Below, piece by piece: positions 6,601 to 29,286 of a stretch of 36,223 nt of DNA. Positions within the stretch are counted from its first letter, which is position 1. Each line of letters begins with the position of its first letter. Position numbers and translations under genes: made by a program. Source of the DNA: an uncultured Lachnospiraceae bacterium (GTDB taxonomy: Bacteria > Bacillota > Clostridia > Lachnospirales > Lachnospiraceae); NCBI GenBank assembly GCA_902783395.1, contig CACZRA010000194.1:1-36223 (forward strand), read 5' to 3'. The notes under the pieces are model-generated. The model searched no databases. It was not told the origin of the DNA and saw only the letters and a list, made by a program, of their open reading frames with translations.

Positions 6601-6997
6601 CGGGAACAAAGTCGGAAGGGAGAGTATGCCGGCGGTCTGTTCTGCTGCCGGCTGTCGAAGGAATATCCGGTCCTCCGGTTTTTTCTTCCCCCTTCAGCTC
6701 GATCCCCAATACATCCTCCAGACCGGTAATGCTTATCACATCATATACACTGTCGGATACATTCAGGATGCGCAGATCTTTAACTCTTTTTTTTAATTCC
6801 AGCAGGATCCTGATCCCGGCTGATGAGATAAACGCAAGCTTGTCGGCATCTATTATTATCCTGTCTATGGAAGAACCGCTGTTTTCAGTATCTGCTATAT
6901 ATTCAAAGATCCTGTCGTATGCAGCTTCTGCGGTGTCATAGTCCAGTTTTTTATCAAGTATGATGCTGAATAATCCTTCACTGTATCCGAGCTTCAT
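3626..6997 (-). CDS. Single-module NRPS-like protein, STAS-A-T-C architecture
   Basis: N-terminal STAS/anti-sigma-antagonist signature (IIIDADKLAFISSAGIRILL). A-domain cores YTSGSTGKPKG, FDVS, NSYGPTE, YKSGDL, GRKDFQVKIRGLRIELGEVE, NKK. Carrier motif GGLSSL. C-domain motif NHLNSDG. Start placed at ATG 6997 because GGAGGG lies just upstream; the ORF track starts at 7021. Confidence 0.9.
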   Translation of the reverse strand: MKLGYSEGLFSIILDKKLDYDTAEAAYDRIFEYIADTENSGSSIDRIIIDADKLAFISSAGIRILLELKKRVKDLRILNVSDSVYDVISITGLEDVLGIELKGEEKTGGPDIPSTAGSRTDRRHTLPSDFVPVTRMFEKQAELHPGHPAVVSSKGSYSYKELNESANKIANTLINMDAGPDDIVCILLERGIEIYAATIGALKAGCAYAVVNPRYPDERIEYIYKDSGAKFIISSLDTVYDRLELFVDRLQKRPLFFEHILSSMEIQNPDTVIYPGDLCYVKYTSGSTGKPKGVMLEHGNLSNFLIDAPDNPGFTELAGKSTRSLAMAQMTFDVSVMEEYIPLVTGHTSVFALFDEIANPAKLIKLMVDNHVDGAVFTPSYLSGMMKLNGVDKAIAGLKAVVFCAEPFLPALYTRIREYNPDVAILNSYGPTETTIICTTKILQSAENITIGFPHTNVEVTVIDEQGNELPKGETGELLIAGKCVGRGYINLPEKTAELFIGYKGMRAYKSGDLCRINSDNEIESFGRKDFQVKIRGLRIELGEVESVMNGMDGIDICVAAAIEGRYLCLYYTSEKGVAESEIRTYAKEHLAHYMLPDIYMKLDEMPMTENKKANRKALPIPQHEVKDEQLRGPETETQETLLKLLNSVIEDRAFGIDQNLPDGGLSSLDIMLFISLIGSEFNIAINIGDFVQHPTIMDLEQFISSAPKLKKTGKLDRYHATERQITGYNEAKAGGNELDLPTLYEMDKDVDTGRLREAVYKTMAVHPGLTLRLEPDEENELYQIPQDDFRDYDIRVSFIDDSGLDSRIHELCTPLPPDGKWLFKFEIIETPSKKYLFTDYNHLNSDGASISIIIEDIIAAYEGKEPEPEQLTALEYGEFLSGFWDTKAGKICTDMYMKIFDNVGGAVTFPPDKNEEKWRPAYLDSPLSVSGSELKEYCTKNRLTESTLLAGALGIVLAGHTKRESIAFSFGYSGRNDSRLSNSIGYIATALEAFCNPGKHTSCKEYLREIDRMLLNVQTFPIMPIMSIFEKYPNALDIVYLYQPYSPEEYEMDGHKIKVISLQERTVYESIKLIVQPVQKKSGDIIWKIDYHGNLYSEDSMNALVRDLNDTVRAMITDDTMK

Positions 6998-7055
6998 TTT
7001 TCCCTCCATACGCCGCATCATTCGCGGTGATCATCGTTTCGCTTTAGTTTCGAGA

Positions 7056-7083
7056 ATTTTACCATAACTGGCGTAAATATGAA
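7056..7083 (-). promoter_or_regulatory. Putative sigma-A promoter of the NRPS-like gene
   Basis: Minus strand reads TTCATA-N16-TAAAAT with the extended TG motif (TGG TAAAAT). Confidence 0.5.
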
Positions 7084-7169
7084 AGAACTCATCCCATATA
7101 TTGAGCATTCCGGAGTGGAAAAACTGTTTTGCCACAAAATGTAGTCGTACTGTTCGAAAAATATTTTTT

Positions 7170-7198
7170 TTGACAAATCCGTCATTTATTCGTATATA
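7170..7198 (+). promoter_or_regulatory. Putative sigma-A promoter of the surface-protein gene
   Basis: Perfect TTGACA at 7170-7175, 17-nt spacer, imperfect -10 TATATA at 7193-7198; AT-rich upstream tract. Confidence 0.45.
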
Positions 7199-7307
7199 TA
7201 AGCAGACGATATTGTGTCTTTCTGACACATTGTCTTGAAAATATATATGGTGATAACTGTATCATGTTGATCAACCGGATCAAGAAACAAAGGAGGAAAA
7301 GCAGATT

Positions 7308-10300
7308 ATGAAGAAGAAAAAAACGATATCACTGATACTGGCTATCGTGCTCTCGTTTGCGGTATTCATACAGAATATCCAGGCGATAAGGACAGTCAGA
7401 GCCGCAGAGCCCGACTATGGATACGGCGACTTCGACGATGACGGTGACGGCGACGATGGCAGTGGCGGATATGATGAAGAGGCCAGCAGGGCAGCGGCAG
7501 AGCAGGCGAGCCGTGAGGCTGCGGAGCAGGCGAGCCGTGAAAAGGCAGAAGAGGCCAGCAGAGCGGCAGAGCAGGCAAGCAAAGAGGCTGCAGAAGCTGA
7601 GGAGGCGCGTAAGAAGCAGGAGGCGATGGACAAGATCGCAAAGGAAAACGAAGAAGCCCAGAAACAGCAGTCACAGGATGATGCGGCCAAGGCAGCTCAG
7701 GAGCTTGCGGACAAGAAAACACAGGAAGCGGAAAAAGCAGCCAGCGGAAGTGATAATGATAAAAACCAGAAGGTTTATAAGATAAATGCATCTCCGGCAT
7801 CCATCAATTTCGGAGAAGCACCTGCCGGAGGAGACAGGCCGGTATATACCGTTCAGGTAAATAACGTGGGTACGGAAGCAGTGGATTTTGATTTTTCTTT
7901 CGGATCAAACACAGGTGCGTTTACCTGTACGCTGAACGGGATAACGGATGGCAATTCTTACAATATCGCTAAGAACGGAGCTGCCATATTCCAGGTTTCG
8001 ATGAAGAATAACCTTTCGGTGGGAACATATACGGATTCACTTGTATTCAGAGTGACAACACCCGGAGCTCCGGCGTGCAGCTCTACAGTCTCTCTTAAGG
8101 GAACGGTGGAATCAGCACAGTCAAAGATAAAGAGCGTATCCGTAAGTCCTCAGAACTATAAGCTTTCGGTAGGGGACAATTATCAGTTCACCGCCACGGT
8201 AAAGGATGCCGACGGTGAGACAAAGGGTGTCAGCCAGGATGTTTCCTGGGAGGTAAGAGGAGCTAGATCGGGAGCGACTGATATTTCTTCAAGCGGTGTG
8301 CTCTCAATAGCCAGGGATGAGTCGTCTTCATCCCTTACGGTTTATGCTTTCTCAATGGATGCTCCGTCGGTGTACGGTACATCGAATGTAATACCTCAGA
8401 GGAGCGGATATAATGTCAGCGTAGCATCAGATCCAAAGGACGGAGGAACGGTAACAGGCGGAGGTTCCGTACCTGAAGGTGGATCGGTGACCCTTACGGC
8501 GATACCTAACAAGAATTATTCATTCGTAGGCTGGATAAGAGACGGCCAGAAGGTATCGACCGCAACAAACTATACGATAGACGACATATATTCAAGCATA
8601 GGCGTTACCGCAAAGTTTGACAGAAAATATGTGACCATTGATCTTGACAGGAATAATGATGACGGCGGAAAGGTTTCCGGCGGAGGCAAGATCAAATACG
8701 GAGACAGCACCACGATCACCGCAAAGGCAAATGACGGTTATGTATTTACCGGCTGGAAGGAAGACGGAAGCATCATAAGCAAGGACGCTTCCCTTAAGCT
8801 GAAGGACTGCAAGGAGGACCGCAAGATAAAGGGAATGTTTGAGAGAACGTCCCATACGATCACCTTATATGCCAGTCCTGCAGAGGGAGGAAAGGTATCC
8901 GGAGGAGGCACTTTCTCCATAAACCAGGGAACTACCGTGACTGCTACACCTAATTCCGGCTACACGTTTGTAGGCTGGGAGGTAAACGGACAGATCGTAA
9001 ACAGAAATGCAAAGGTAAAGATAGACAGACTGGAGGAAGATTACAAATGTACCGCTATCTTCATAAAGACAGGTATCACGTCATATGAGATATCGGCAGG
9101 AGTCGCGACCACAGGCGGTTCCATCAGTCCCAGCGGAAAGCGTACGGTTGCCCAGGGACAGAATATAACCTACACGATAGTCCCTAAGGCGGGATATGCT
9201 ATACTTGCTGTAGCCGTGGACAATGTACAGGTGGGACCGGTAAGCTCATATACTTTCTCCAATGTACAGTCTAACCATACGATAGCAGCAGCCTTCCTTC
9301 TTACCGATGCAGGAAAGGCCAAGGGTGCTTCGACTCAGTCCACTAAAGTGGAGAAGAAGCAGAAGACCCCTGAAAATACGGCCAGTTCAAACTCAACCGT
9401 AACCATAGACGATGCTCTTTCAGGTGAAGGCGGAGACGATTATGTGGAGGAAATGCATGATATTGACACCCTGCCGGTTCCCACCGATGAAGAGCTCGGA
9501 GTGACTGAGGAGGACTCATTCTACTCAGATGTGGCGGGCATGCTCGGTGTATCGCAGGAAGAAGCACGTGAGATGGCAATGTCAGGAGACAGGAGCCAGA
9601 TAGCAAGGGCAGCATTCTACGCGGGAGCACTTGATGCGTCTGCCGAGAACGAACTGGAACCTAAGAATATGAACGGTGTGGATTATTCATCGATGACTTC
9701 GGAAGAACTGATGCAGCTGCCTGAGGAAGAGATCTATCCCAGCTATACCAATCTGGATGTGGTAGTCGAAAACCTGCTGACAACAGATGACATGGTAGCA
9801 CTGGTCGACGGCGGAACAGAGAGCGTTGCGATAAGCCTTACGAAGCTCGGAAAATATGACGTACCTCCTTCGGATGAACAGGTGATAAAGAAGAACGCTG
9901 TAGGACAGAAGCCGCTTCAGTACTTTGATCTGTCGATGCTTAAGACGGTAAACGGCTATACGGATAATGTACATGAGATTGGCGATACCCTTGAGATCGT
10001 TATTGAAATACCGGACGAGATCTATAAGGCCGGAAAAACATATTCCGTTCTCAGGGTGCATGAAGGAGAGCTCAAGGTACTGCCGGATCTGGATGATAAT
10101 CCTAAGACGATAACATTCAGGACAGACCGCTTCTCATCCTATGCCATAGCCCAGGAAGTAGCGTCAAGCAAACAGATGGTCATATGGTTCTCGCTCGGAG
10201 CACTCATTGCTCTGCTTATAGGCCTCACCTGCTTCCTTATCCTGATCATACATCAGGCAAAGATGAGGAAGGAAAGAAGACGTATCCGTGCTGAGCAGCG

Positions 10301-10322: not shown

Positions 10323-10417
10323 CTGCCGGATCTACGATTCTTTCGTATAAATATACAGAATGTATTTGATAATACATCCGGCTGATGGCTGATAAAACAC
10401 AGAAAAGGAGAGAAAAA

Positions 10418-10681
10418 ATGAACGATAACGAAAAGAAACTGCAGGATGAGCAGCTTGAAAACGTAAGCGGCGGTGCCGGAGTTACAAAGTGGGGATTTCC
10501 GTATGATGATAAGGGAAACGTAACATATACAGATAAAAGCGGACAGAGCCTTGTCATAAGCAAAAAAGACTGGCAGTGGCTGCTTACCCAGTATAAAGGA
10601 CCCATAGGTGATCCGGAGTATTATCTTTCAACTGTACCCGCAAAGGACCTGAAAGTGATAATCGCCGACCATAACGGGTAA
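10418..10681 (+). CDS. Small protein with double-glycine leader (19-aa leader + 68-aa core)
   Basis: SD AAAGGAG before ATG 10418 (ORF track starts at 10385). MNDNEKKLQDEQLENVSGG matches the L-x-D-E-x-L-x-x-V-x-GG leader consensus. Confidence 0.8.
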   Translation: MNDNEKKLQDEQLENVSGGAGVTKWGFPYDDKGNVTYTDKSGQSLVISKKDWQWLLTQYKGPIGDPEYYLSTVPAKDLKVIIADHNG

Positions 10682-10708
10682 AACGTGATCAGGGAACATT
10701 AAGACAGA

Positions 10709-10756
10709 AGAACCGCTGCAGTACTGCAGATGAGCTGCAGGAGCCGCAGCGGTTCT
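10709..10756 (+). repeat. Inverted repeat between the two double-glycine peptide genes
   Basis: AGAACCGCTGC (10709-10719) pairs with GCAGCGGTTCT (10746-10756). An overlapping perfect palindrome CTGCAGTACTGCAG lies at 10716-10729. Confidence 0.7.
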
Positions 10757-10779
10757 CATATGTACGGAGGAATAAAGAT

Positions 10780-11052
10780 ATGGATGGGATCACAAAGCTT
10801 ACAGATGAAATGCTCGACGGAGTGTCGGGAGGAGTACAGTCCAATACCAAGCATACCGAATCGGAGCTGGAGAAGGCCGGTGTCATAGTAAAGCATATTA
10901 ACGGCAAAACGATATATGAGACCCGGCTGTCAAGCGGCATGACCATAAAGATACAGCCGAACGTGGCCATGGGAATGTGCGACTGTTATAAACTTTCCGG
11001 AGGAGAAAGACTTAATGATCAGCAGATACAGGATCTTATAGCACAAAGCTGA
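10780..11052 (+). CDS. Small protein with double-glycine leader (18-aa leader + 72-aa core)
   Basis: SD GGAGG upstream. Leader MDGITKLTDEMLDGVSGG; core contains a CxC (MCDCY). Confidence 0.8.
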   Translation: MDGITKLTDEMLDGVSGGVQSNTKHTESELEKAGVIVKHINGKTIYETRLSSGMTIKIQPNVAMGMCDCYKLSGGERLNDQQIQDLIAQS

Positions 11053-15962: not shown

Positions 15963-16931
15963 ATGGCATTAGTTACAAGTACCGAGATGTTCAAAAAAGC
16001 CTATCACGGCGGTTATGCCGTAGGCGCATTCAACGTGAACAACATGGAGATCGTCCAGGGTATCACGGAAGCAGCCGACGAGCTGAAGAGTCCTGTCATC
16101 CTTCAGGTTTCCAAGGGAGCAAGGGCTTATGCGAATCACACCTATCTTACCAAGCTGGTAGAGGCGGCGATCATTGAACACCCTGATATACCGATCGTTC
16201 TTCATCTGGATCACGGTGATACCTTTGAGCTTTGTAAGGACTGCATAGACGGCGGATTTACGTCCGTTATGATCGATGCTTCTTCGAAGAGCTTTGAAGA
16301 TAATATTGCCCTGACAAAGCAGGTTGTTGATTATGCTCATGATAAGGGAGCTGTAGTAGAGGCAGAGCTCGGAACTCTTGCAGGCATTGAGGATGAGGTT
16401 GTCGTCGAGGCAGGCAAGGAGTCATATACACGTCCGGAGGAGGTTGAAGAGTTCGTTTCAAGAACAGGTTGTGATTCCCTTGCAATAGCAATCGGAACCT
16501 CGCACGGCGCCTATAAATTCACTGCAGAGCAGTGCACAAGAAATGAAGAGGGGATCCTGGTTCCGCCGCCGCTTCGTTTCGATGTTCTGGAGGAGTGCAT
16601 GAAGAGACTTCCCGAATTCCCCATCGTGCTTCACGGTTCTTCATCCGTTCCGCAGGAGTTTGTCAAGATGGTTAATGCTTACGGCGGAAATATGCCCGAT
16701 GCAGTAGGAATTCCCGAGGAGCAGCTCCGTAAGGCTGCAGAGCTTGCAGTCTGCAAGATAAATATTGATTCCGATATCCGTCTTGCCATGACAGGAAATA
16801 TCCGCAAGTATTTCGCTGAGCATCCGGATCACTTTGATCCCCGTCAGTATCTGAAGCCCGCACGTCAGGCTGTAAAGGATATGGTATCGCATAAGATCAA
16901 GAACGTGCTCGGCTCAGACGGAAAGGCATAA
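15963..16931 (+). CDS. fba: Class II fructose-1,6-bisphosphate aldolase
   Basis: AVGAFNVNN, LHLDHG, SVMIDAS, VEAELG, AIGTSHG, VLHGSS, KINIDSD. Confidence 0.97.
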   Translation: MALVTSTEMFKKAYHGGYAVGAFNVNNMEIVQGITEAADELKSPVILQVSKGARAYANHTYLTKLVEAAIIEHPDIPIVLHLDHGDTFELCKDCIDGGFTSVMIDASSKSFEDNIALTKQVVDYAHDKGAVVEAELGTLAGIEDEVVVEAGKESYTRPEEVEEFVSRTGCDSLAIAIGTSHGAYKFTAEQCTRNEEGILVPPPLRFDVLEECMKRLPEFPIVLHGSSSVPQEFVKMVNAYGGNMPDAVGIPEEQLRKAAELAVCKINIDSDIRLAMTGNIRKYFAEHPDHFDPRQYLKPARQAVKDMVSHKIKNVLGSDGKA

Positions 16932-16975: not shown

Positions 16976-17010
16976 ATCCCTCCGGTCTGTATGTCCGGGG
17001 GGATTTTTAT
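16976..17010 (+). terminator. Intrinsic terminator of fba
   Basis: Stem ATCCCTCCGG-N9-CCGGGGGGAT (one G-U pair) followed by TTTTAT. Confidence 0.8.
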
Positions 17011-17055
17011 GGCTGCGGGACTCAATGACCGGAGTATAAAGACGAAAAAAGCCGT

Positions 17056-17150
17056 AAAAAAGGGAGGAGCCCGATATCCTTACGGATATCGGGCATTTTT
17101 ATGAAAAAGTTTTTGTAATAACGAAGCTGTCTTATTTATTTATTTTATGT
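17056..17150 (-). ncRNA. Candidate small regulatory RNA with anti-AUG and anti-SD motifs
   Basis: Minus strand: -10 TATACT (17161-17156), A-rich 5' part, ACUUUUUCAU, perfect 11-bp hairpin with GUAA (GNRA) loop (17094-17069), UCCUCCC, then U6. Ends are estimated. Confidence 0.55.
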
Positions 17151-17155
17151 TACAA

Positions 17156-17232
17156 AGTATAATGATCGAAAGTGAATAAATGATTTTACTCACATAAATG
17201 TTTTTTTAATGATTTATGAACAAATGATGAAC
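17156..17232 (-). promoter_or_regulatory. 11-bp-phased direct repeats plus -10 box (putative OmpR/PhoB-family activated promoter)
   Basis: Minus-strand hexamers starting at 17232, 17221, 17210, 17199, 17188, 17177 read GTTCAT, GTTCAT, ATTAAA, ATTTAT, TAAAAT, ATTCAC. The last lies 10 nt before TATACT; no -35 hexamer. Confidence 0.45.
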
Positions 17233-17271: not shown

Positions 17272-17817
17272 ATGTCAGAAGAAAGGAAGAATCCGATAGT
17301 AACGTTTACAATGGAGGGGGGAGCGGAATTTAAGGCAGAGCTTTATCCGGAGGTCGCCCCCAATACAGTGAATAATTTTATCTCACTTGTGTCAAAAGGG
17401 TACTATGACGGACTTATTTTTCACAGGGTAATAAAGGGATTTATGATCCAGGGCGGAGATCCTGACGGAACGGGTATGGGAGGCCCCGGTTATTCCATAA
17501 AAGGAGAGTTTAAAAGCAACGGCTTTGACAATGATCTGAAACACACGGAAGGTGTTCTTTCCATGGCGAGATCCATGATGCCGGACAGTGCGGGTTCACA
17601 GTTTTTTGTAATGCATAAGACTTCCCCCCACCTTGACGGAGATTACGCGGCTTTCGGCAAAGTGACAGAAGGTATGGATGTCGTAAACGGGATAGCGGAA
17701 TGTGAAACAGACTGGAATGACAGACCTTTAAAGGAACAGAAGCTGAGTTCCGTCACGGTAGAAACATTTGGTGTAGCTTATCCGGAACCGGAAAGATCGA
17801 TGATACCCTCGCCATGA
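17272..17817 (+). CDS. Cyclophilin-type peptidyl-prolyl cis-trans isomerase
   Basis: APNTVNNF, YDGLIFHRVIKGFMIQGGDP, LSMAR, AGSQFF, HLDGDYAAFGKV. SD AGGAGG. Confidence 0.96.
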   Translation: MSEERKNPIVTFTMEGGAEFKAELYPEVAPNTVNNFISLVSKGYYDGLIFHRVIKGFMIQGGDPDGTGMGGPGYSIKGEFKSNGFDNDLKHTEGVLSMARSMMPDSAGSQFFVMHKTSPHLDGDYAAFGKVTEGMDVVNGIAECETDWNDRPLKEQKLSSVTVETFGVAYPEPERSMIPSP

Positions 17818-17995: not shown

Positions 17996-18616
17996 ATGGC
18001 GATCATCAAAAGGGCAGTTGCTTCCGCTGCAAACGAGAAGCCTGCAAACGGAGTGGTAAAGATAAACTCCATTGAGGAACCGAAAGCAAAACAGAAGGCT
18101 GAGGCTGCGGCAGCAGACAAAACGGCAAAGTCCACGGAAGCTGCAAAGGCAGTTAAGAAGGCACCGGCAAAGAAGACAGCAGCAAAGGCACCGGCAAAGA
18201 AGCCTGCATCAGCTGCTAAGAGTACGGCAGCAAAGCCTATAGAAAAGAAGGCCGAGACCAAGGCTCCCGCAAAGAAGACGGCAGTAAAGAAGACGGCGGC
18301 ACCGGCAAAGAAGGCACCGGCAGCAAAGAAAACAGAAGCAAAGAAGACGGTTGCAAAGAAGGCTCCGGCCAAGACAGCAGCAAAGAAGCCCGCAGCTGCA
18401 GCAAAGGCAGCGGCTCTTAAGGCTGAGCTTACAGTTGAGTTCAACGGACGCAGTGTCAAGAAGGAAGAGATCGATCAGGCATTTGAGGGCGTCTGGACAT
18501 ATGATATGCAGCGCAAGATGTCTGAGGTAAAGAAGGTGGATTATTATTTAAAGCCCGAAGAATCAGCTGTTTACTTTGTAGTCAACGACGGTACAGAGGG
18601 ACGCTTTGAGATTTAA
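17996..18616 (+). CDS. Lys/Ala/Pro-rich histone-H1-like protein with small C-terminal domain (DUF6465-like)
   Basis: Start at ATG 17996 behind GGAAGGGAG; repeated KAPAKK/KKTAAK units; C-terminal YYLKPEESAVYFVVN...G-x-F domain. Family name recalled, not searched. Confidence 0.75.
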   Translation: MAIIKRAVASAANEKPANGVVKINSIEEPKAKQKAEAAAADKTAKSTEAAKAVKKAPAKKTAAKAPAKKPASAAKSTAAKPIEKKAETKAPAKKTAVKKTAAPAKKAPAAKKTEAKKTVAKKAPAKTAAKKPAAAAKAAALKAELTVEFNGRSVKKEEIDQAFEGVWTYDMQRKMSEVKKVDYYLKPEESAVYFVVNDGTEGRFEI

Positions 18617-20336
18617 GCCAGAGTCTGACAATACCTTTGATGGAGCCGGTGGCATACGCCGCCGGCTCGTTTTAAATATAATCTCTGTTGCGGTCATTCT
18701 ATATACATTTTTTTTTCTGATATCAATATGCAGAGTTTCCTTTTCGGGCAGTCATATTCCGAACGAATACAGGGAAGCCGCGAATTTTGATCTTACCCTG
18801 TCGTTTATAAAGGGAGAAAATCCTTATACGCTCGATAACTTGAACGGCGAGGTACCCGCCTGCGTTTTCCAGTATGGGCCGTTGTTTTCGCTTTTGACGG
18901 CCGGCATCCATTTCCTGATACCCTTTATCGATATTTTTACGCTTCATTATGCAGTGGCTTTTTTATGTATTCTGGCGGCTGCGATAATGGCATCATATAT
19001 TGCAGCTGAAAACTCACAGACACTTTTGCCTCCTGCCTGCGTTTTTCTTTTTACCATCGCCTGTACATGGAGATACGGGTATATAAACGCGGTTCCCGAT
19101 ACACTCGGGGTTACGCTTCTGGTGCTCATTTTCTTTATAGAGACAAGAAAAAAGATATTTCCGAAGGAATATGCGGAGGCTGCGGTCGCAGTGGCTCTTT
19201 TATATACCAAACAGTATTTTATAATCATTGCGCTGAGTCTTTTCATATATAAGCTGATAACGGACAAAAAAGCGTGGATAAGGCTTTCGGTTTCGGGGAT
19301 CCTGATACTTTCGGCATCTGTTATCATACTGAATATTACCTGTCCGCTGTTTTTTACATATACTGTCCTGATAGTTCACGGTGTATCGGGGCAGTCGGTT
19401 GCATCAACCCATCCGCTGTTTTCCGGCATACTCTTTCCGGCGGCCGGACGGATCAGCCTGCTTTCTTCGGCGGTTCAACAGGAGCTTCCGTCTACGGGCT
19501 GGGCTTTTGAGATCATGCAGCTAAAGAGTCTTTCGGGTATTTTCATTTTCGTATTTGCCGGCATGCTGACGGGAGTCATAAGAGCCTTTGCTTCGAGGAC
19601 ACCGAGATTTTTTGCGAGCAGGCTTTTTGTGATCCATTCACTGGTCGCGTCCGCCGCTCTGTTATATCTCGGTCAGAATGACGGAGCATGGCTTTCGTAT
19701 TATCTGCAGCTTCTTATGCCGGCGGTGGTGATCTATTCTTTTATTTCGATAGAAAAGGATGTGCTTGATGAAGGTATGAAACGTATATATAAGGCGGCAT
19801 ATATCCTTCTTATGCTTTTCATGGTGATGTATACCACATACAGGATGGATTCGAGACTTCCGTATTTTGAAAAGGATGACACGGTTTTGGCGGAATGGGA
19901 TAAGGCATACAGATACTGTGACGCGTATGCTTCATCCGGTGAAATACTCTACAGGGCTCCGCTTGGGATAAATGCCCTTGCTGAAGGAAGATATCTGTAT
20001 GACAACGGTCATGAGATGGCGATACACCAACGTTTCCTTGATGAGTATAACGGGAGTGCCTTTTACCGGATGCTTTTTCCGTATGGCGGACAGCTTATGG
20101 AACAGCATCTCAGATATCGTGAGATAATGAGGAAAAAGATCCTGAATAAGGAATACAGTCTTGTTTTTGATACGGATGTTGACGGGGAGCTGGTAAGTAC
20201 CGGTGATCTCGAGGCGGGAGGATATGTTAAGCTTGATACACTGTCTCTTGATATGGGGTGGGCCTCATATGATATTGATCTCTGGATCCCGTCAGACGGA
20301 GATAAGCCATCCTTCGTGACAGAGGGTTGGACCTGA
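18606..20336 (+). CDS. Polytopic membrane protein, possibly a GT-C-fold glycosyltransferase
   Basis: About 10-12 hydrophobic segments; first loop has EYRE and NPY...YGPL, later PD and TKQ motifs, and a soluble C-terminal domain. The TTG start overlapping the upstream gene is uncertain. Confidence 0.5.
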   Translation: MRFKPESDNTFDGAGGIRRRLVLNIISVAVILYTFFFLISICRVSFSGSHIPNEYREAANFDLTLSFIKGENPYTLDNLNGEVPACVFQYGPLFSLLTAGIHFLIPFIDIFTLHYAVAFLCILAAAIMASYIAAENSQTLLPPACVFLFTIACTWRYGYINAVPDTLGVTLLVLIFFIETRKKIFPKEYAEAAVAVALLYTKQYFIIIALSLFIYKLITDKKAWIRLSVSGILILSASVIILNITCPLFFTYTVLIVHGVSGQSVASTHPLFSGILFPAAGRISLLSSAVQQELPSTGWAFEIMQLKSLSGIFIFVFAGMLTGVIRAFASRTPRFFASRLFVIHSLVASAALLYLGQNDGAWLSYYLQLLMPAVVIYSFISIEKDVLDEGMKRIYKAAYILLMLFMVMYTTYRMDSRLPYFEKDDTVLAEWDKAYRYCDAYASSGEILYRAPLGINALAEGRYLYDNGHEMAIHQRFLDEYNGSAFYRMLFPYGGQLMEQHLRYREIMRKKILNKEYSLVFDTDVDGELVSTGDLEAGGYVKLDTLSLDMGWASYDIDLWIPSDGDKPSFVTEGWT

Positions 20337-20342
20337 CAGGGT

Positions 20343-20371
20343 TTGAAGTCCTCTATTATAAGTGTTATTAT
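20343..20371 (+). promoter_or_regulatory. Putative sigma-A promoter of the ech-hyp operon
   Basis: TTGAAG-N17-TATTAT with extended TG (TGT TATTAT). Confidence 0.6.
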
Positions 20372-20418
20372 AGGTTTTAGTTGTTTTTGTACGTATTGAT
20401 CAAACAAGGGGGAGCGGT

Positions 20419-22398
20419 TTGCCGGTTTTGGCGTTTCTTATATTATTTCCGTTTGCGATCGCCTTTATCCTTTTTTTTCTGAAGAAGGATTCAAAGGGGC
20501 GTTCTTTTGTTGTCATATCCGGAGGGCTGGCAGAGCTTGCGGGTTCTGTCCTTTTTGCGGCGGATAATCTGATGAATCATGACATGGAAATGGGGACCTA
20601 CTATCTTAAGGAAACCCATATGACCGATATGTTCATTGCGGCATTGGAGCTTTGTCTTATGCTGCTCGTCATTTTTCTTTCGGTAAAATATAAAAAGTAT
20701 TATGTGATACTGCTTTCGGCTCTCGGAACCCTGCCGGTCCTTTATATGGATATTTCCGGAGCCGCAGAAACAACAGCATCGCATTTCAAGGTGGATCATC
20801 TGACACTTATCATGGTGCTAGTAGTGGGTGTGGTAGGTTCTCTTATCTGTATCTATGCTGTGGGATATATAAGGGATTATCATCATCACCATACGGAATT
20901 TACGGACCGGTCGGGGTATTTTCTTTCCCTGCTTTTTGTATTTCTCGGGGCCATGATGGGTCTTATAAGCTCTGATAATCTCATGTGGATGTATTTCTTC
21001 TGGGAGATAACATCGGTCTGCTCTTTCCTTCTGATAGGATATTCAAGGACTGCGGAGGCGGTCAATAATTCCTTCAGGGCCTTGTGGATGAATCTTCTCG
21101 GCGGATGCGGCTTCATGGCGGCTATCGTTTTCTGTATCTATGTTATGGAGATAACCAATATCTCCCAGCTGCTGTTGTTTACAACAATGCCGGTGCTTGC
21201 AATATTTCCGGTGGCGATGCTTTCGTTTGCGGCGCTCACAAAGTCCGCACAGATGCCCTTCAGCAGATGGCTTCTGGGGGCAATGGTAGCGCCTACACCG
21301 ACATCGGCACTCCTGCATTCCGCTACCATGGTCAAAGCGGGGGTGTACCTGCTTTTGAGGCTTTCGCCTGTTATGTATGAAACGTATGTGGGGACGATGG
21401 TCACGGCGATAGGAGGATTTACTTTCTTTGCGGCATCGCTTCTTGCCATAACGGTATCGGACGGAAAGAAGGTGCTTGCATATTCCACGATATCAAATCT
21501 CGGACTCATCACGGCTGCTGCAGGATGCGGTATGGCGGAGGCTGTATGGGCAGGGATAATGCTCCTCATATTCCACGCAGTTACCAAATCAATGATGTTC
21601 ATGTCAGTCGGGGCGTATGAAAATTCCACCGGCAGCAGGGATGTGGAGGATATGCATGGAATGATAGTGAGGTATCCGAAGCTTGCCTTTGTGATGACTA
21701 TAGGTATTTTCGGCATGTCAGTGGTGCCGATGGGAATGTGTGTAGCAAAATGGGCAGCGCTCAAGGCCTTTATTGATACAGGAAATATATATCTTATCCT
21801 GTTTTTATGCTTTGGTTCGGCGTCCACTCTTTTCTACTGGATCAAATGGCTCGGAAAGATATTCAGCGTGTCAAAGGGATCAAAAAGACATGAGGATACC
21901 GTGCACGGCAGTGAATGGGTCGCTATCTATCCGCTTTCGGCCATAGCTGTTATACTTTGCCTGGTATACCCGTTTATAAGCAGGTTTTCAGTCACTCCTT
22001 ATATTCAGAATGCTTTCAGCGGGTCATTGAACCGGCTTGTTTCCGCTGCTACTGCTGACAGTCTGTTGGGATCGACTGACAATATCGTCGCTATAAGCAC
22101 GGAGGATTTTGTTATCATGGGAGTCATGCTGATCTGCATGTGCATACTGCCACTCGCGATGAAATATGTGAACAGTGTACAGGAGAGACGGGTAATGTCG
22201 TATATGTCCGGATTCAATACGGGAGATGACAGAAGCTTTTATGACAGCTTCGGAAATGAGCGCGGGCAGTATCTTTCAAACTGGTATATGAATGATATTT
22301 TCGGTGAGAAAAAGATACTGGCCGCATGTCTTATGATCACGGCTGCGTTTCTTGTGGTAATGATGGGAATATGTACCATGGGAGGACTTTTCCTATGA
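20419..22398 (+). CDS. echA: Ech hydrogenase subunit A (NuoL/MrpA-like antiporter subunit)
   Basis: FFWEITSVCSFLLIGY, KSAQMPF..WL..AMVAPTPTSALLHSATMVKAGVYL, KKVLAYSTIS, HAVTKS. TTG start after AAGGGGGAG. Confidence 0.93.
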   Translation: MPVLAFLILFPFAIAFILFFLKKDSKGRSFVVISGGLAELAGSVLFAADNLMNHDMEMGTYYLKETHMTDMFIAALELCLMLLVIFLSVKYKKYYVILLSALGTLPVLYMDISGAAETTASHFKVDHLTLIMVLVVGVVGSLICIYAVGYIRDYHHHHTEFTDRSGYFLSLLFVFLGAMMGLISSDNLMWMYFFWEITSVCSFLLIGYSRTAEAVNNSFRALWMNLLGGCGFMAAIVFCIYVMEITNISQLLLFTTMPVLAIFPVAMLSFAALTKSAQMPFSRWLLGAMVAPTPTSALLHSATMVKAGVYLLLRLSPVMYETYVGTMVTAIGGFTFFAASLLAITVSDGKKVLAYSTISNLGLITAAAGCGMAEAVWAGIMLLIFHAVTKSMMFMSVGAYENSTGSRDVEDMHGMIVRYPKLAFVMTIGIFGMSVVPMGMCVAKWAALKAFIDTGNIYLILFLCFGSASTLFYWIKWLGKIFSVSKGSKRHEDTVHGSEWVAIYPLSAIAVILCLVYPFISRFSVTPYIQNAFSGSLNRLVSAATADSLLGSTDNIVAISTEDFVIMGVMLICMCILPLAMKYVNSVQERRVMSYMSGFNTGDDRSFYDSFGNERGQYLSNWYMNDIFGEKKILAACLMITAAFLVVMMGICTMGGLFL

Positions 22399-23267
22399 CT
22401 ATGATCGGTATGATCGCGGTTATCATATATCTGGTGATATCCCCGTTAATAGCATGTCTGATCTCGGGAGTGGACAGGGTCGTTACCGCGCGGATGCAGG
22501 GCAGAAAAGGACCTAAGCTTATGCAGCCCTGGTATGACATAGTGAAGCTTTTCGCCAAGGAAGCTACTTCGGTAAATGATATGCAGAAGATACTGGTCAT
22601 GGCGCACTGCTTTTTTGCTATCTTCAGCGGAGCGGTTTTTTTCGCAGGAGGAGACATCCTGCTCGTTCTTTTTGCGCTTACCATGGCGGAGGTATTTCTT
22701 GTTCTTGCCGCATACAGTGTAAATGCCGCATATTCAGAGCTGGGGGCGCAGAGGGAGCTGCTGCAGATGATGGCCTACGAACCAATGACGCTCCTTACGG
22801 CTGTGGGATTTTACCTTTCGACAGGATCCTTTAAGGTTGAGGATATAATAAAGACCGATATTCCGCTCATAATAAAGATGCCGGGCTTTTTTATAGGATT
22901 TTGTTTTATTCTTGTTATCAAGATGCGGAAATCACCGTTTGATCTGGCTACCTCGCATCATGCGCACCAGGAAGTCATAAAGGGACTTACAGGAGACCTG
23001 TCCGGACCTGTTTACGGCTTTTCAGAGCTTGCTGAGCTGTACGAAGAGGTTTTGATGCTCGGGATAGTGGGACTGTTTTTTGTGACGTCCGATCCCCTGA
23101 GCCTTGCAGGGGCTGCGGCCGCGATAATAATTGTGATGTTTTGTATGTCGCTTACAGACAATATCTTCCCAAGAGTAAAATGGGAGGGAATGCTCAAGGC
23201 GGCATGGATCGTGACGTTTTTTGCGGGAGGCGCGAACCTCGTCGTTCTTTCGCTTTTGAACCGATAA
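22395..23267 (+). CDS. echB: Ech hydrogenase subunit B (NuoH-like)
   Basis: DRVVTARMQGRKGP, QPWYDIVKL, YEP, KSPFDL, PR. Start at ATG 22395 (ATGA overlap with echA, SD GGAGGA). Confidence 0.93.
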   Translation: MTMIGMIAVIIYLVISPLIACLISGVDRVVTARMQGRKGPKLMQPWYDIVKLFAKEATSVNDMQKILVMAHCFFAIFSGAVFFAGGDILLVLFALTMAEVFLVLAAYSVNAAYSELGAQRELLQMMAYEPMTLLTAVGFYLSTGSFKVEDIIKTDIPLIIKMPGFFIGFCFILVIKMRKSPFDLATSHHAHQEVIKGLTGDLSGPVYGFSELAELYEEVLMLGIVGLFFVTSDPLSLAGAAAAIIIVMFCMSLTDNIFPRVKWEGMLKAAWIVTFFAGGANLVVLSLLNR

Positions 23268-23293
23268 TAATGCTGGTCATCGGAGGTGCTTAG

Positions 23294-23797
23294 ATGAGGA
23301 TCTCAAAAAGTCCATGGCTGCTCCATTATGACGGGAGCAGCTGCAATGGGTGTGATATAGAGGTATTGGCGGCTACAACTCCAAGATTTGATGTGGAGCG
23401 CTTTGGGATAATAAATACGGGCAATCCCAGACATGCGGATATTTTTCTCTGTACGGGAGGCGTTAATTCACAGAATAAGGATGTAGTGCGTCAGATATAT
23501 GATCAGATGCCCGATCCCAAGGTCGTGCTTGCCTGCGGGATCTGTGCCTGTGACGGAGGGATATTTAAGGACTGTTATAATATAATGGGCGGCACGGATA
23601 CGGTGATCCCCGTGGATGTGTATGTACCCGGATGCGCCGTAAGACCGGAAGCGCTTATAGACGGGGTTGTGAAGGCGCTTAAGCTGCTTGACGAAAAGGC
23701 TGAAAAGATGAAACGGGGAGAATATAAGAGCCTGACCTCGGCAGAATATGAGGCCGCACGCAGGCAGGATGCGGCTGAGGAGAAGAACAATGCTTGA
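23294..23797 (+). CDS. echC: Ech hydrogenase small subunit C
   Basis: SCNGCDIE, ERFG, PRHAD, GICAC-x-GG, DVYVPGC (NuoB-type Fe-S ligands). Confidence 0.95.
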   Translation: MRISKSPWLLHYDGSSCNGCDIEVLAATTPRFDVERFGIINTGNPRHADIFLCTGGVNSQNKDVVRQIYDQMPDPKVVLACGICACDGGIFKDCYNIMGGTDTVIPVDVYVPGCAVRPEALIDGVVKALKLLDEKAEKMKRGEYKSLTSAEYEAARRQDAAEEKNNA

Positions 23798-24122
23798 AAA
23801 CCTGGAAGAGATCGAACTCATAGGGCTGCTCAATAAGGCCAAGGAGATAAAAAATGACGGATACAGGGTCATGCAGATCTGTGCGACAAAGATCGAGGAT
23901 GATTATGAGCTCCTTTATACCTTCGGACGGGGATATGATATCAGACATATAAAGACGGTCATTTCTCCGGGAGTTCATGTGCCGAGCGTGTCGGATATTT
24001 TTCCCGCGGCTTTTCTCTATGAAAATGAAATGCATGATCTGTTCGGAATAGCGATCGACGGAATAAACCATGACTATAAGGGCGGGTTGTACCGTACTGC
24101 GGTAGAGACACCGTTTGCCTGA
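23790..24122 (+). CDS. echD: Ech hydrogenase subunit D (NuoC-like)
   Basis: GYRVMQICAT, YELLYTF, VPSVS..FPAAFLYENEMHDLFGI. Start at ATG 23790 after GAGGAG. Confidence 0.9.
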   Translation: MLENLEEIELIGLLNKAKEIKNDGYRVMQICATKIEDDYELLYTFGRGYDIRHIKTVISPGVHVPSVSDIFPAAFLYENEMHDLFGIAIDGINHDYKGGLYRTAVETPFA

Positions 24123-24134
24123 TCGGAGGAAGAA

Positions 24135-25217
24135 ATGGCAGGAAAAAGAAGTGTTATCCCATTCGGACCGCAGCATCCGGTTTTACCGGAGCCCATACAT
24201 ATAGATCTTATAACCGAGGATGAAAAGGTTGTAGAAGCTGTCCCCTCCATAGGCTTTGTCCACAGAGGACTGGAGCAGCTCGTTACAAAAAAGGACTTCG
24301 GCGAGATGGTTTATGTGGCGGAAAGGATCTGCGGGATATGCTCTTTCGGACACGGATACGGATATGTTAATGCCATAGAGCATATTATGGACATACATCC
24401 CACGGACAGGGCGAGATTTATACGCACCATGCTCTTTGAACTGTCGCGTATGCATTCTCATATACTGTGGCTCGGTCTCATGGCAGATGCATTCGGGTTT
24501 GAGAGCCTTTTCATGGAGACCTGGAAATACAGGGAAAAGATCCTTGATATGCTCGAGGCGGCAACGGGCGGTAGAGTCATCTTTTCCATTATCAGGATAG
24601 GCGGCCTGAGGAAGGATGTTCCGGATGAAGTCATGCAGGGGTTCCTGCCTGAGCTTGATAAGGTGGTCGAGGGGATAAAAAGCTGTGAGAAGGTGTTCCT
24701 GTCAGATCCGGCTGTTTTAAGCCGTTTGAAGGGAATAGGTTATCTTTCAAAGGAGGACGCCATAGCGCTTGGATGTGAGGGACCTTTTCTTCGGGCCTCC
24801 GGTGTGGATACGGATAACAGGATGAGGGGCTACGCGGCATACAGCTCCGTTGATTTCGATATCATCACCTCAGACGAGGGGGATTCCTATGCGAGGTGTT
24901 ATGTACGTATACAGGAGATATACCAGTCGGCGTCCATTATCAGACAGTGTATTGAGAAGATGCCAAAAGAAGGAATATATGTACCGATCAAGGGATTTCC
25001 AAACGGGGAATATATGACGGTCATTGAACAGCCGAGAGGCGGTGCCTGTTATTATGTACATTCCTCGGGGAGGAAATTCATAGAACGGATGAGAGTCAGG
25101 ACACCAACCTTTGCAAATATCCCTGCTCTGACAAAGACACTGCAGGGATGCGATGTGGCTGATGTTCCCATACTGGTGGTTACGATAGACCCGTGCATAT
25201 CCTGTACTGAGAGATAA
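24135..25217 (+). CDS. echE: Ech hydrogenase large [NiFe] subunit E
   Basis: PFGPQHP, HRGLE, L1 motif ERICGICS, L2 motif DPCISCTER at the very C-terminus (no cleavable extension). Confidence 0.96.
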   Translation: MAGKRSVIPFGPQHPVLPEPIHIDLITEDEKVVEAVPSIGFVHRGLEQLVTKKDFGEMVYVAERICGICSFGHGYGYVNAIEHIMDIHPTDRARFIRTMLFELSRMHSHILWLGLMADAFGFESLFMETWKYREKILDMLEAATGGRVIFSIIRIGGLRKDVPDEVMQGFLPELDKVVEGIKSCEKVFLSDPAVLSRLKGIGYLSKEDAIALGCEGPFLRASGVDTDNRMRGYAAYSSVDFDIITSDEGDSYARCYVRIQEIYQSASIIRQCIEKMPKEGIYVPIKGFPNGEYMTVIEQPRGGACYYVHSSGRKFIERMRVRTPTFANIPALTKTLQGCDVADVPILVVTIDPCISCTER

Positions 25218-25221
25218 ATAT

Positions 25222-25716
25222 ATGTCATTGGTAAATTTTACAAAAACTGAATTAAAGAATCTCTTTTCAAAACCCGCTACGGAAAAGTATCCGGACGGTC
25301 CCGCTACATACAAAGAGGGGACCAGGGGACATATAGTCAACAACATGGATGCGTGCGTGCTTTGCGGAGTGTGCCAGATGAGATGTCCCACGAGAGCGAT
25401 CACGGTTGACAGGAAGGGACAGACCTGGTCAATAAGGCCGTTTTCATGCATACAGTGCCGGCGCTGCGTGGATAACTGTCCCAAGAAATCTCTTTCCATG
25501 GCAAAGGAGTATACTGAGCCTGACGTGGAGAAAAGCCAGATGGATTTTGAGCTTTCGGACAGGCAGAAGGAAGTGCTTGCAGAGCAGGCAAGACAGGCAG
25601 CGGAAAGAGCAAAAGCAGCCATGCTTGCAACAAAGCAGAAGACCGTACAGGCAAAGGAAGACAAGCCGGGAGAAAAGCCGGGAGCGGATCCCGATCCCGG
25701 AAAAGCTGACAAATGA
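25222..25716 (+). CDS. echF: Ech hydrogenase subunit F, 2x[4Fe-4S]
   Basis: CVLCGVCQMRCP and CIQCRRCVDNCP; charged C-terminal tail. Confidence 0.93.
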   Translation: MSLVNFTKTELKNLFSKPATEKYPDGPATYKEGTRGHIVNNMDACVLCGVCQMRCPTRAITVDRKGQTWSIRPFSCIQCRRCVDNCPKKSLSMAKEYTEPDVEKSQMDFELSDRQKEVLAEQARQAAERAKAAMLATKQKTVQAKEDKPGEKPGADPDPGKADK

Positions 25717-27938
25717 ATTATGAGATAACCGTAAAAGGCGTAGTACAGGGTGTCGGATTCCGTCCTTTTGTATACCGGCTTGCCAGGAAAATGGGGCTCT
25801 CGGGAGATGTAAGGAATTCCGGGGGTATAGTACGCATAAGGCTTACGGATACCGATGAAGAGACGGCAAAGAAATTTGTTTCCAGGCTCAGGACGGATAA
25901 GCCCGGGGAAGCGGTGATCAGTTCGGCAGATATAAAACCGGCAGAGCAGGAGAATGGCGCTGCCGGTTTTTTTATCATATCCTCCGATGACATACGGGAG
26001 GATGAGCTACCGGATATCCCGGCGGATATCGGGGTATGTACGAAATGTATTTCCGAGATGAGAGAGCTTTCAAACCGGAGATACGCATATCCGTACATAT
26101 CCTGCGCAGCCTGCGGGCCGAGATTTTCCATTATAGAAAGACTGCCGTATGACAGAGACAATACAACCATGTCGGAATACGAAATGTGTTCCCGATGCAT
26201 GTCGGATTACAATGACGCGGGAAATCCCTACGCAAGAAGACATTTTGCCCAGACGATAAGCTGCAACAGCTGCGGTCCTCAGGTCATACTGCGTACCGAT
26301 GAGGGCAGGGAGTTGACCGGGGGATTCGCTGTAGGAAAGGCGTGTGAGATATTAAGATACGGCGGTATTCTTGCTATCAAGGGGACAGGGGGTTATCAGT
26401 TTGCGTGTCTTCCGGATGATACTTACGCGGTGCTGAAGCTGAGGGATATAAAGGGCAGAGAGAAGAAGCCCTTTGCTCTTTTGTTTCCGACTATAGCATC
26501 CATAAGGGAGGTCGCGGAGGTGTCCAAAGCAGAGGAGCAGCTGCTTCGCTCCCAGGCGCGTCCGATAGTGCTTCTGGAAGCGCATCTGAGAGACAAGGCC
26601 CTGAAATTTGTGTGCGGTGACAGCATGAGCATCGGAGCAATGCTTCCTCATACAGGACTGCATGCAATATTGTCATCGACCCTGGGACCTATGGTGCTTA
26701 CTTCGGGAAATATAAGCGGAGAACCGCTTTCTTACAGGGACGAGGATTTCTTCCGTCATGAGTTTGAAGGTATTGAGGGAGTCCTGTACTATAAACGGGA
26801 CATTCTTGTTCCGCTGGATGATTCGGTGGCAAGGATCACCGACGGAAAAAAACAGATACTCAGATACGCGAGAGGATATGTGCCGGGAAAGCTGGTGCTG
26901 GATAAAAGTCTTAAAAAGCCTCTGATCGCGTTCGGAGGGGATCTGAAGGCTTCTTTTGCTGTCGCGAAGGGAAAGGGTATCGTGCTTTCCCAGTATATAG
27001 GAGATATGGAGAGCTATGCCTGCCAGGAGAACTTCAAGGCTTCCCTGGAAAGGGAGATCAGGCTGTACGGGTTCCGGCCGGAGGCTGTTGTCTGTGATAA
27101 GCATCCGGGCTATATTTCCGCGAGACTAGCAGGAGAATTCGCAAAAAAGCACAAGATTCCCGTCATAGGTGTTTATCATCATCATGCGCACATTGCCTCG
27201 GTGATGGCGGAACACGGTCTTACGCATACTATAGGCATTGCTATGGATGGTACAGGTTACGGCAGGGACGGAAGGATCTGGGGAGGCGAGGTTTTCTATG
27301 TTATGGGACCCAATTCCGACAGGCGTTCGCATATAGGATATTTCCGGCTTATAGGCGGGGACGAAGCGGCTAGGGATGCCGGGAAGGATCTTAAATGTCT
27401 TATGCATGCAGCTGGCTTTGAAATAGATGATGAGATAGTTGCCGCCGCCATAGACGAGCATATAAACACATTTGAAACATCTTCTGCAGGGCGGCTCTTT
27501 GATATCACGGCAGCGGCTCTGGGATTAAGGAGCTATAATACTTATGAGGCTGAATGTGCCACGGCGCTTGAAAATGCAGCCAGATCAGCACTGAAAAAGG
27601 GGCTTACGATGTATGCGCTTCCCGTTACCGGAGATCCGCATGAGCTGATATATTATCTGATAAAAGCAAAGCAGAGGGGCATCGATGTAAGAGAACTCGC
27701 CATAGGATTCCACAAAGCCCTGGCTTCCTGGGTGGTAAAACAATGTGAAGATATACGGGATGATAACGCCGATAATAACGTATGTCTTTCAGGCGGATGC
27801 TTTGCAAATCAGGTACTTACGGATATGTGCAGGGACGGACTTACGGCGAAGGGATTTCATGTATATATGAATGAAAGGATCCCACTCAACGATCAGGGGA
27901 TCGCAGCAGGGCAGGCGTACATACTGGCACTGCAGTAA
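25713..27938 (+). CDS. hypF: Carbamoyltransferase HypF
   Basis: Acylphosphatase GVVQGVGFRPFVY, two CxxC...CxxC zinc fingers, TSGNISGEP, DKHP, HHHAH, DGTGYG, SSAGRLFD, LSGG-x-F-x-N, ND-x-GI-x-x-GQ. Confidence 0.96.
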   Translation: MNYEITVKGVVQGVGFRPFVYRLARKMGLSGDVRNSGGIVRIRLTDTDEETAKKFVSRLRTDKPGEAVISSADIKPAEQENGAAGFFIISSDDIREDELPDIPADIGVCTKCISEMRELSNRRYAYPYISCAACGPRFSIIERLPYDRDNTTMSEYEMCSRCMSDYNDAGNPYARRHFAQTISCNSCGPQVILRTDEGRELTGGFAVGKACEILRYGGILAIKGTGGYQFACLPDDTYAVLKLRDIKGREKKPFALLFPTIASIREVAEVSKAEEQLLRSQARPIVLLEAHLRDKALKFVCGDSMSIGAMLPHTGLHAILSSTLGPMVLTSGNISGEPLSYRDEDFFRHEFEGIEGVLYYKRDILVPLDDSVARITDGKKQILRYARGYVPGKLVLDKSLKKPLIAFGGDLKASFAVAKGKGIVLSQYIGDMESYACQENFKASLEREIRLYGFRPEAVVCDKHPGYISARLAGEFAKKHKIPVIGVYHHHAHIASVMAEHGLTHTIGIAMDGTGYGRDGRIWGGEVFYVMGPNSDRRSHIGYFRLIGGDEAARDAGKDLKCLMHAAGFEIDDEIVAAAIDEHINTFETSSAGRLFDITAAALGLRSYNTYEAECATALENAARSALKKGLTMYALPVTGDPHELIYYLIKAKQRGIDVRELAIGFHKALASWVVKQCEDIRDDNADNNVCLSGGCFANQVLTDMCRDGLTAKGFHVYMNERIPLNDQGIAAGQAYILALQ

Positions 27939-27958
27939 GGAAACGGAAGGAAAAAGCT

Positions 27959-28171
27959 ATGTGCATTGCATCGGGCGGAGTGATAAAGCAAAAGAAAGGA
28001 CATAAGGCGCTGGTTGATTTCGGAGGAAATGTAATAGAAGCCGAGGCCGGACTTACCGAATGTGCAGTCGGAGACCATGTGCTTGTCCATGCGGGGTGCA
28101 TAATACAAAAGCTTTCGGAGACAGAGGCAGAGGAAATGAATGAGATCATGAGGCTTTTGGAGGATATTTAA
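27959..28171 (+). CDS. hypC: Hydrogenase assembly chaperone HypC
   Basis: N-terminal MC, ALVDFGG, VGDHVLVHAG. Confidence 0.9.
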   Translation: MCIASGGVIKQKKGHKALVDFGGNVIEAEAGLTECAVGDHVLVHAGCIIQKLSETEAEEMNEIMRLLEDI

Positions 28172-28187
28172 CAGCACCGGGGATAGT

Positions 28188-29216: not shown

Positions 29217-29286
29217 GGCCGGATATGATACATGAGGCCGCAAAGAAGGCAGCATACAGAGAAGAGAATGTCAGAGGAGCATATAA

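Follow-up and report, generated by a model that had tools for sequence, protein, structure and literature searches.

Members of the Lachnospiraceae are among the most abundant bacteria of the gut and rumen. In the 36,223-nucleotide stretch of DNA analyzed here (the window), which derives from an uncultured member of this family, the fba gene (15963–16931, plus strand) and a gene for a cyclophilin-type PPIase (17272–17817, plus strand) are separated by an element whose minus strand reads as an anti-AUG, a hairpin, and an anti-Shine-Dalgarno (anti-SD) sequence, in that order. The fba gene is convergent to this element, and the cyclophilin gene is divergent and has the promoter region in common with it. 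The locus raises the question of what an antisense copy of a translation start, divided by a hairpin, does on this strand. The element represents a real and widespread family, sRNA-like and apparently undescribed, that has a split seed together with a regulator box of its own, and the reading preferred here, to which a probability of about 0.55 is assigned, is that it makes an RNA of ~100 nt that lowers the translation of many signal-peptide and lipoprotein mRNAs, likely under an envelope- or secretion-stress two-component system.

Layout, distribution and novelty of the element

The predicted sRNA, ~95–105 nt in length with both ends inferred, is placed by folding at 17045–17150 on the minus strand, and the sequence matches the initial annotation, which had described an anti-start arm, a hairpin with a GUAA loop, UCCUCCC, six U, and a TATACT box. 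The anti-start arm AAAACUUUUUCAU (17101–17113), which is the complement of AUG AAA AAG UUU U, is joined by a 6-nt spacer (17095–17100) to the 11-bp hairpin (17069–17094). The stem is abutted by the anti-SD arm UCCUCCC (17062–17068), which is followed by the U run and a second U run (17045–17061, with the six U at 17056–17061). The predicted RNA has a folding z-score of −3.55, and none of 200 shuffled sequences folds equally well. With the stem looped out, the anti-SD and anti-AUG are 4–7 nt apart in 152 of 154 copies, similar to the spacing at real start sites, and in 137 copies the two arms, split by the stem, have predicted mean unpaired probabilities of 0.67 and 0.62, respectively. A CCC..GGG mini-hairpin 3′ of the anti-SD occurs in 71 of the 154 copies and a second U run in 94, and this mini-hairpin with its U tract is likely the 3′ end of the RNA, which departs from a textbook terminator in having seven bases between the main stem and the U run.

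The same layout recurs across the family. Among 401 genomes of the family, each representing one genus, a pattern requiring both flanks with a 12–42 nt gap matches 189, vs. ~19 for the reversed control, and the layout is therefore not due to chance; the hairpin is present in 25 of 30 fetched pattern loci, so some of the pattern matches are false. Within the genus, BLAST at a loose threshold gives a match in 34 of 47 genomes, and in 25 chosen copies the aligned flanks are constant while the stem varies. In a collection of named genomes, 120 loci were found in 4 of its 64 parts (~2400 estimated overall), and a stem ending against the anti-SD is seen in 108 of 121 sequence-only matches compared with 10 of 8100 shuffles. 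The stem-positive records are mostly labeled as Lachnospiraceae or as genera of Lachnospiraceae, five are labeled Bacteroidota, and most of the outsiders fall among the 13 negatives. Butyrivibrio, Lacrimispora, Enterocloster, and Oribacterium have strains among the named carriers. A covariance model retrieves the element from this genome and from four of seven other family genomes, and with only 47 candidates scored in each of 93 genomes from the order's other families, it gives one weak match, which lacks the promoter.

The paralogues that the initial annotation had proposed to look for occur in other genomes but not in this one. Siblings amount to 7, 5, 3, and 2 model matches in four of five genomes, which were picked mostly for known multiple matches, and most of them have the repeat box described below. 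They may be clustered, with two copies within 600 bases at one locus and three within 11 kb in another genome (G386:C1, 4471382–4482224). In the present assembly, the model finds only two copies, namely that of the window and one on contig C381, and the latter was rejected as a paralogue since C381 has a second rapZ-whiA-HPr-fba block and the copy is a duplicate of the same locus. This second block (C381, 1–3234) is diverged, with its element cut by the contig end, and it is likely that the assembly mixes two strains or species.

Matches were also seen in a viral collection, where 15 of 67 resemble true family copies by eye; among six examined, two sit between host pfk and a phage integrase, at a prophage edge, and one adjoins a tail-sheath cluster. 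A separate phage element occurs in viral contigs of 40–221 kb, with the anti-AUG, hairpin, and UCCUCCC behind a TATAAT box. At its 5′ end it has an additional hairpin, at its 3′ end a long one that contains a second UUCCUCCU, and it has no repeat box; it may be a phage sRNA whose design arose convergently.

The comparison with Rfam suggested by the initial annotation gave nothing at gathering score for the window, and ten loci with the element, of which nine are family copies, were equally without a match at that score. Literature searches yielded no description of the element, nor did a word search of PMC11109978 and PMC8632094 (main text of each), and the alignment supplements of PMC5737381, PMC11109978, and PMC8040213 may contain an unnamed listing. 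No characterized regulatory sRNA family was found for the Lachnospiraceae in the literature searched.

Promoter and candidate regulator

Upstream of the element, the minus strand carries a −10 box, TATACT (17156–17161), which overlaps TATAAT on the plus strand, a possible −10 box of the divergent cyclophilin gene. Across 137 copies, the −10 box is TATACT in 98 and TATAAT in 21; an overlapping TATAAT on the opposite strand is present in only 15 of these copies, and ownership of the −10 box by the divergent gene alone was accordingly rejected. When the copies are aligned on their best −10 box, CA is enriched at −80, −69, −58, −47, −36, and −25, which marks six TTCAYA-like repeats with an 11-bp period in fixed register, of which the two most upstream read GTTCAYA. 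Direct repeats at this period are the layout of OmpR-family sites. In the window, the two strongest repeats, GTTCATC and GTTCATA, lie 11 bp apart at 17215–17232 (minus strand) and are predicted from the family profile to be the site of an OmpR-type regulator, and four weaker repeats in the same register, corresponding to the family-wide CA at −58 to −25, continue through the −35 position (17171–17210, minus strand). This arrangement agrees with the response-regulator-type promoter that had been proposed at first, as far as sequence can indicate. An earlier interpretation of the upstream palindrome as a Rex site was dropped once the 11-bp period appeared.

The promoter profile scores at least 15 bits in 138 of 150 copies, which are also its training set, and at most −12 in shuffled sequences. 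With this genus left out of training, the profile gives the window promoter 56.1 bits, with the next best site in the genome at 15.0. The promoter is kept both where the upstream gene is divergent (56 of 60) and where it lies on the same strand (47 of 50). The least circular test of the element is retrieval by the promoter alone: in 71 genomes, this search gave seven matches, all of which lead into an anti-start arm; six are complete, one is cut by a contig end, and four have variant arms that the two-flank pattern had missed.

A second candidate sRNA is present on contig C238 of this assembly (~3380–3510, plus strand) and at further loci, with an inverted box, TGAACAC-N4-TGAACAC, before TATAAT. 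These are followed by a UCCUAAA stretch resembling that of csRNAs, by C-rich segments similar to an anti-SD, and by a terminator hairpin that covaries; the candidate is conserved in 8 of 47 genus genomes including this one, and has no Rfam match.

The two-repeat box has 28 matches in ten genomes vs. seven control matches. The sites comprise seven sRNA promoters, two before hsp20, one before an htrA-like gene, and one, inverted, before secA, and the remainder are mixed and partly inside genes; the recurring non-sRNA genes are those of protein quality control. At 12 bits or more, the box is found at a constant promoter position before 6 of 30 htrA-like and 6 of 30 hsp20 genes (0.2–0.3% in shuffled sequences), and is absent before the other 24 of each. 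In this genome, it reaches 18.4 bits at hsp20 and 1.4 bits at the genome's own htrA-like gene. The Pho regulon, which was the first guess from the repeats, was excluded, as none of 18 pstS genes has the box at 12 bits and the best score on the sense strand is 5.4 bits. Upstream regions of pstS instead contain TTTAC(A) repeats with an 11-bp period in 12 of 28 cases, which are likely the Pho box of the Lachnospiraceae. In eight hsp20 promoters, TTCACA repeats stand directly before an operator overlapping TTGACA, which we take to be CIRCE-like, and this suggests dual control of these promoters.

In this genome, the htrA-like gene lies in one cluster with mutS2 and the genes for a histidine kinase and an OmpR-type regulator (contig C237, ~4000–9900), and the cluster is conserved, in rearranged form, among genomes, with a kinase motif within 1.5 kb at 28 of 30 regulator loci. 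This regulator and its kinase are the best candidates, by gene context, for the system acting on the box. The regulator falls below every NCBIfam cut-off (best MtrA, YycF) and fits no named NCBIfam family, and in none of 30 cases do the 350 nt before the regulator gene, which mostly follows mutS2 in an operon, contain the box. In CssRS of Bacillus subtilis, which activates htrA and htrB, the quoted box TTTTCACA agrees with the unit TGTTCACA at seven of eight bases, and no sRNA arm is mentioned in the accessible part of that source (PMC6749698). The box given in the available portion of PMC12113857 is different from the repeat box here. Based on the box at htrA-like and hsp20 genes, the htrA-linked cluster, and the one-base difference from the CssR box, there are roughly even odds that an envelope- or secretion-stress system drives the element. 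A phosphorylated OmpR-type regulator would then bind the TTCAYA repeats, which would replace a −35 box.

A less probable but still serious alternative, held at about one chance in four, retains the same antisense sRNA but has it either controlled by a different OmpR-type regulator or a different signal (WalR-, ResD-, or heat-type) or directed at a few specific mRNAs rather than at exported proteins as a class. A different regulator would be in keeping with the five OmpR-type regulators of this genome, none of which could be tied to the box, and with the presence of the box at only a fifth of the htrA-like and hsp20 genes; the recurrence of protein-quality-control genes among the non-sRNA genes sharing the box and the exclusion of the Pho regulon speak against it.

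Predicted targets and known antisense sRNAs

Which mRNAs the arms would fit was examined in 1897 genes of this genome with a clear ribosome-binding site (own gene calls), 227 of which (12%) are signal- or lipoprotein-like according to a rule. Ranked by summed duplex energies with accessibility left out, 14 of the top 25 starts are signal- or lipoprotein-like, in line with the initial proposal that signal-peptide genes would be the best-matching starts. Both arms together give 30 such genes among the top 100 partners, the AUG arm by itself gives 38 exported proteins of 100 and the SD arm 16 of 100, and 60 of 96 ATGAARAA starts are of the export type. This enrichment follows from the anti-Lys-Lys seed and shows the fit of the seed, and is no proof of regulation. 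The start region of a 1004-aa surface protein with InlB B-repeats (7283–7320, plus strand; gene at 7308) is a predicted target of rank 12 of 1897. The pairing that had been suggested for this mRNA is reproduced by co-folding, which predicts an 11-bp helix with one G-U and a GGAGGA helix and leaves the hairpin intact, giving a three-way junction.

In the preferred reading, the RNA would expose UUUUUCAUAA and UCCUCCC on opposite sides of the stem, and looping out of the stem would bring the arms 4–7 nt apart, so that they could pair on either side of the ribosome-binding site, clamping GGAGG together with AUG-AAA-AAR within a three-way junction. Since Met-Lys-Lys starts are typical of signal peptides, one seed would cover a class of exported proteins, and a two-component system switching the RNA on under envelope or secretion stress would place a brake on them. 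The possibility that only a few specific mRNAs are targeted draws on the csRNAs, for which the available text of PMC4507080 indicates a handful of proven targets. A search of 46 genomes for starts with the full complement gave 13 in ten genomes; judged by eye, 11 of these open long proteins whose N-termini are of the signal, lipoprotein, or anchor type, and the other two are short ORFs. The long proteins are unrelated apart from one paralogue pair, and no single conserved target gene was found among these starts, which argues against a narrow target set.

Alternatively, the element could be a regulated non-coding RNA in which the constant flanks serve to bind a protein or to sponge a second RNA, its likeness to a translation start being incidental or secondary. 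A protein site would equally be expected to keep flanks near-invariant over hundreds of genera, and no mRNA was found to show compensatory change. This explanation is nevertheless improbable: among the anti-SD variants that replace the UCCUCCC of the window (ACCUCCC, UCCUCUC, ACUCCUC, and GCCUCCU), the first and the last two stay complementary to Shine-Dalgarno sequences, the looped-out spacer equals start-site spacing, and the seed, when spliced, nearly equals the csRNA consensus.

This consensus, UUUUUUCAUAAUAAUCUCCU (RF02379), resembles the seed of the present family minus the hairpin, and the likeness may reflect ancestry or convergence. The csRNAs of the streptococcal CiaRH system are, so far as the available parts of the reports describe them, sibling sRNAs under an OmpR-family regulator with htrA in its regulon, as is proposed here (PMC3091779; PMC4507080), and their anti-SD and anti-AUG are unpaired, as is predicted here; the seed is contiguous in csRNAs and split by a stem in the element. 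The analogy drawn by the initial annotation thus extends to the anti-SD and anti-start motifs and stops at the box, which consists of GTTCAYA repeats rather than the CiaR box TTTAAG-N5-TTTAAG given in the accessible text of PMC3091779. In addition, the csRNA nonamer [A/C]UCCUAAA[A/C] is absent from the RNA of the window and forms no conserved block in the family alignments, and RF02379, one of the best weak Rfam matches of the element, gives it 21.5 bits (cut-off 57, E = 1.6). On box, nonamer, and score, the element of these Lachnospiraceae therefore fails membership of the csRNAs, whose hosts are streptococci. Hfq is apparently absent in streptococci, according to the part of PMC3091779 available, and it was not found in any of the five genomes searched here.

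Similarly, LhrC1-5 of Listeria monocytogenes are multicopy sRNAs driven by the two-component system LisRK under envelope stress, in which a C-rich motif blocks the translation of a surface protein; as presented in the available text (PMC4132741), the UCCC site of LhrC is present three times, redundantly, in loops and linker, whereas the element has one anti-SD arm together with an anti-AUG-Lys-Lys arm. There is one UCCUCCC in the window, and some siblings have C-rich loops.

In enterobacteria, the SigmaE sRNAs MicA, RybB, and MicL are Hfq-dependent and driven by a sigma factor and have outer-membrane targets. Compared by logic alone, they have in common with the present proposal that envelope stress lowers the export load by silencing envelope-protein mRNAs. 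The element is best read as a family of split-seed sRNAs, akin to csRNAs and LhrC, that would brake exported proteins under secretion stress. A bolder form of this reading can be put forward only tentatively, namely that the brake is family-wide, with one RNA reading the Met-Lys-Lys opening at the codon level and damping exported proteins as a class, the hairpin acting as a ruler between two seeds, and the RNA forming an arm of an undescribed envelope-stress system of regulator, kinase, HtrA, and Hsp20. If true, Gram-positive bacteria without Hfq would lower their export load via a class-wide seed, and an sRNA geometry with the seed split by a stem would be added to those known. The conserved sRNA, promoter motif, candidate two-component system, and target class together form one testable package, which bears on how strains being developed as live therapeutics secrete surface proteins and carbohydrate-active enzymes.

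Strand of the predicted RNA and neighboring genes

In 60 diverse copies, all nine stem pairs examined are changed on both sides, and 86% of cells are paired, a level reached by none of 500 shuffles and compared with 36–52% in slid-alignment controls. The flanks are near-constant while the stem varies and covaries, the opposite of the pattern that the initial annotation had named as contrary to its proposal. Wobbles in 138 unique stems, read on the minus strand, are 34 G-U vs. 3 A-C, and this asymmetry indicates that the RNA is the minus strand, carrying UUUUUCAU and UCCUCCC, which supports the strand assigned originally; kinship of the sequences and a lenient minus-strand folding-energy pre-filter of the stems weaken the p-value and leave the direction as it is. 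The GNRA loop, which had been advanced as an argument for this strand, is invalid for that purpose, as only 26 of 154 unique copies are GNRA and loops vary freely.

As a very improbable alternative, the element might encode no RNA of its own and only terminate the convergent gene, either on the plus strand or in both directions. In the terminator scan, the stem scores on the plus strand only, and of 122 cases with a neighbor, 95 have the next gene in convergent orientation. The separate fba terminator claimed at the outset exists in this genome as a hairpin at ~16976–17008, but is absent before the element in 7 of 27 genus loci with fba visible, at which the main stem may end fba transcripts. 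However, the wobbles favor the minus strand by 34 to 3, constant flanks and an opposite-strand promoter in fixed register would be needless for a terminator, and the promoter alone retrieves the element; termination of fba could still be a second job of the element. A plus-strand mini-gene, in which the hairpin brings Shine-Dalgarno and AUG together (GGGAGGA-hairpin-ATG AAA AAG TTT, for a Met-Lys-Lys-Phe peptide), is scarcely credible, as the ORF opened by this ATG is between 4 and 39 codons long depending on the copy, with indels that shift the frame, and the wobbles and the promoter are on the opposite strand. A 5′ leader or riboswitch was ruled out by gene orientation, and the frequency of convergent next genes, along with neighbors that differ widely, argues against a leader.

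Four RNA runs matched the window only with pieces of fba and PPIase from relatives, the source organism being absent from them, and thus give no evidence on expression. A Butyrivibrio copy compared with the same runs gave family-like contigs in three of the four, at a depth of 2–4 and strandless, which is no evidence of a transcript.

Other features of the window include two short ORFs (98 and 90 aa) at 10385–11052 (plus strand), directly after the surface-protein gene, which have no Pfam match and each contain an 'L..VSGG' motif, presumably a double-glycine-like leader, making peptide precursors possible. Encoded at 3626–7021 (minus strand) is a stand-alone protein of unusual make-up, combining STAS, AMP-binding, carrier, and condensation domains. 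An energy-converting hydrogenase-like operon at 18606–31154 (plus strand), which includes hypF, hypD, and a hypE-like gene and is interrupted by a methyltransferase gene, is followed by hrcA-grpE-dnaK-dnaJ.
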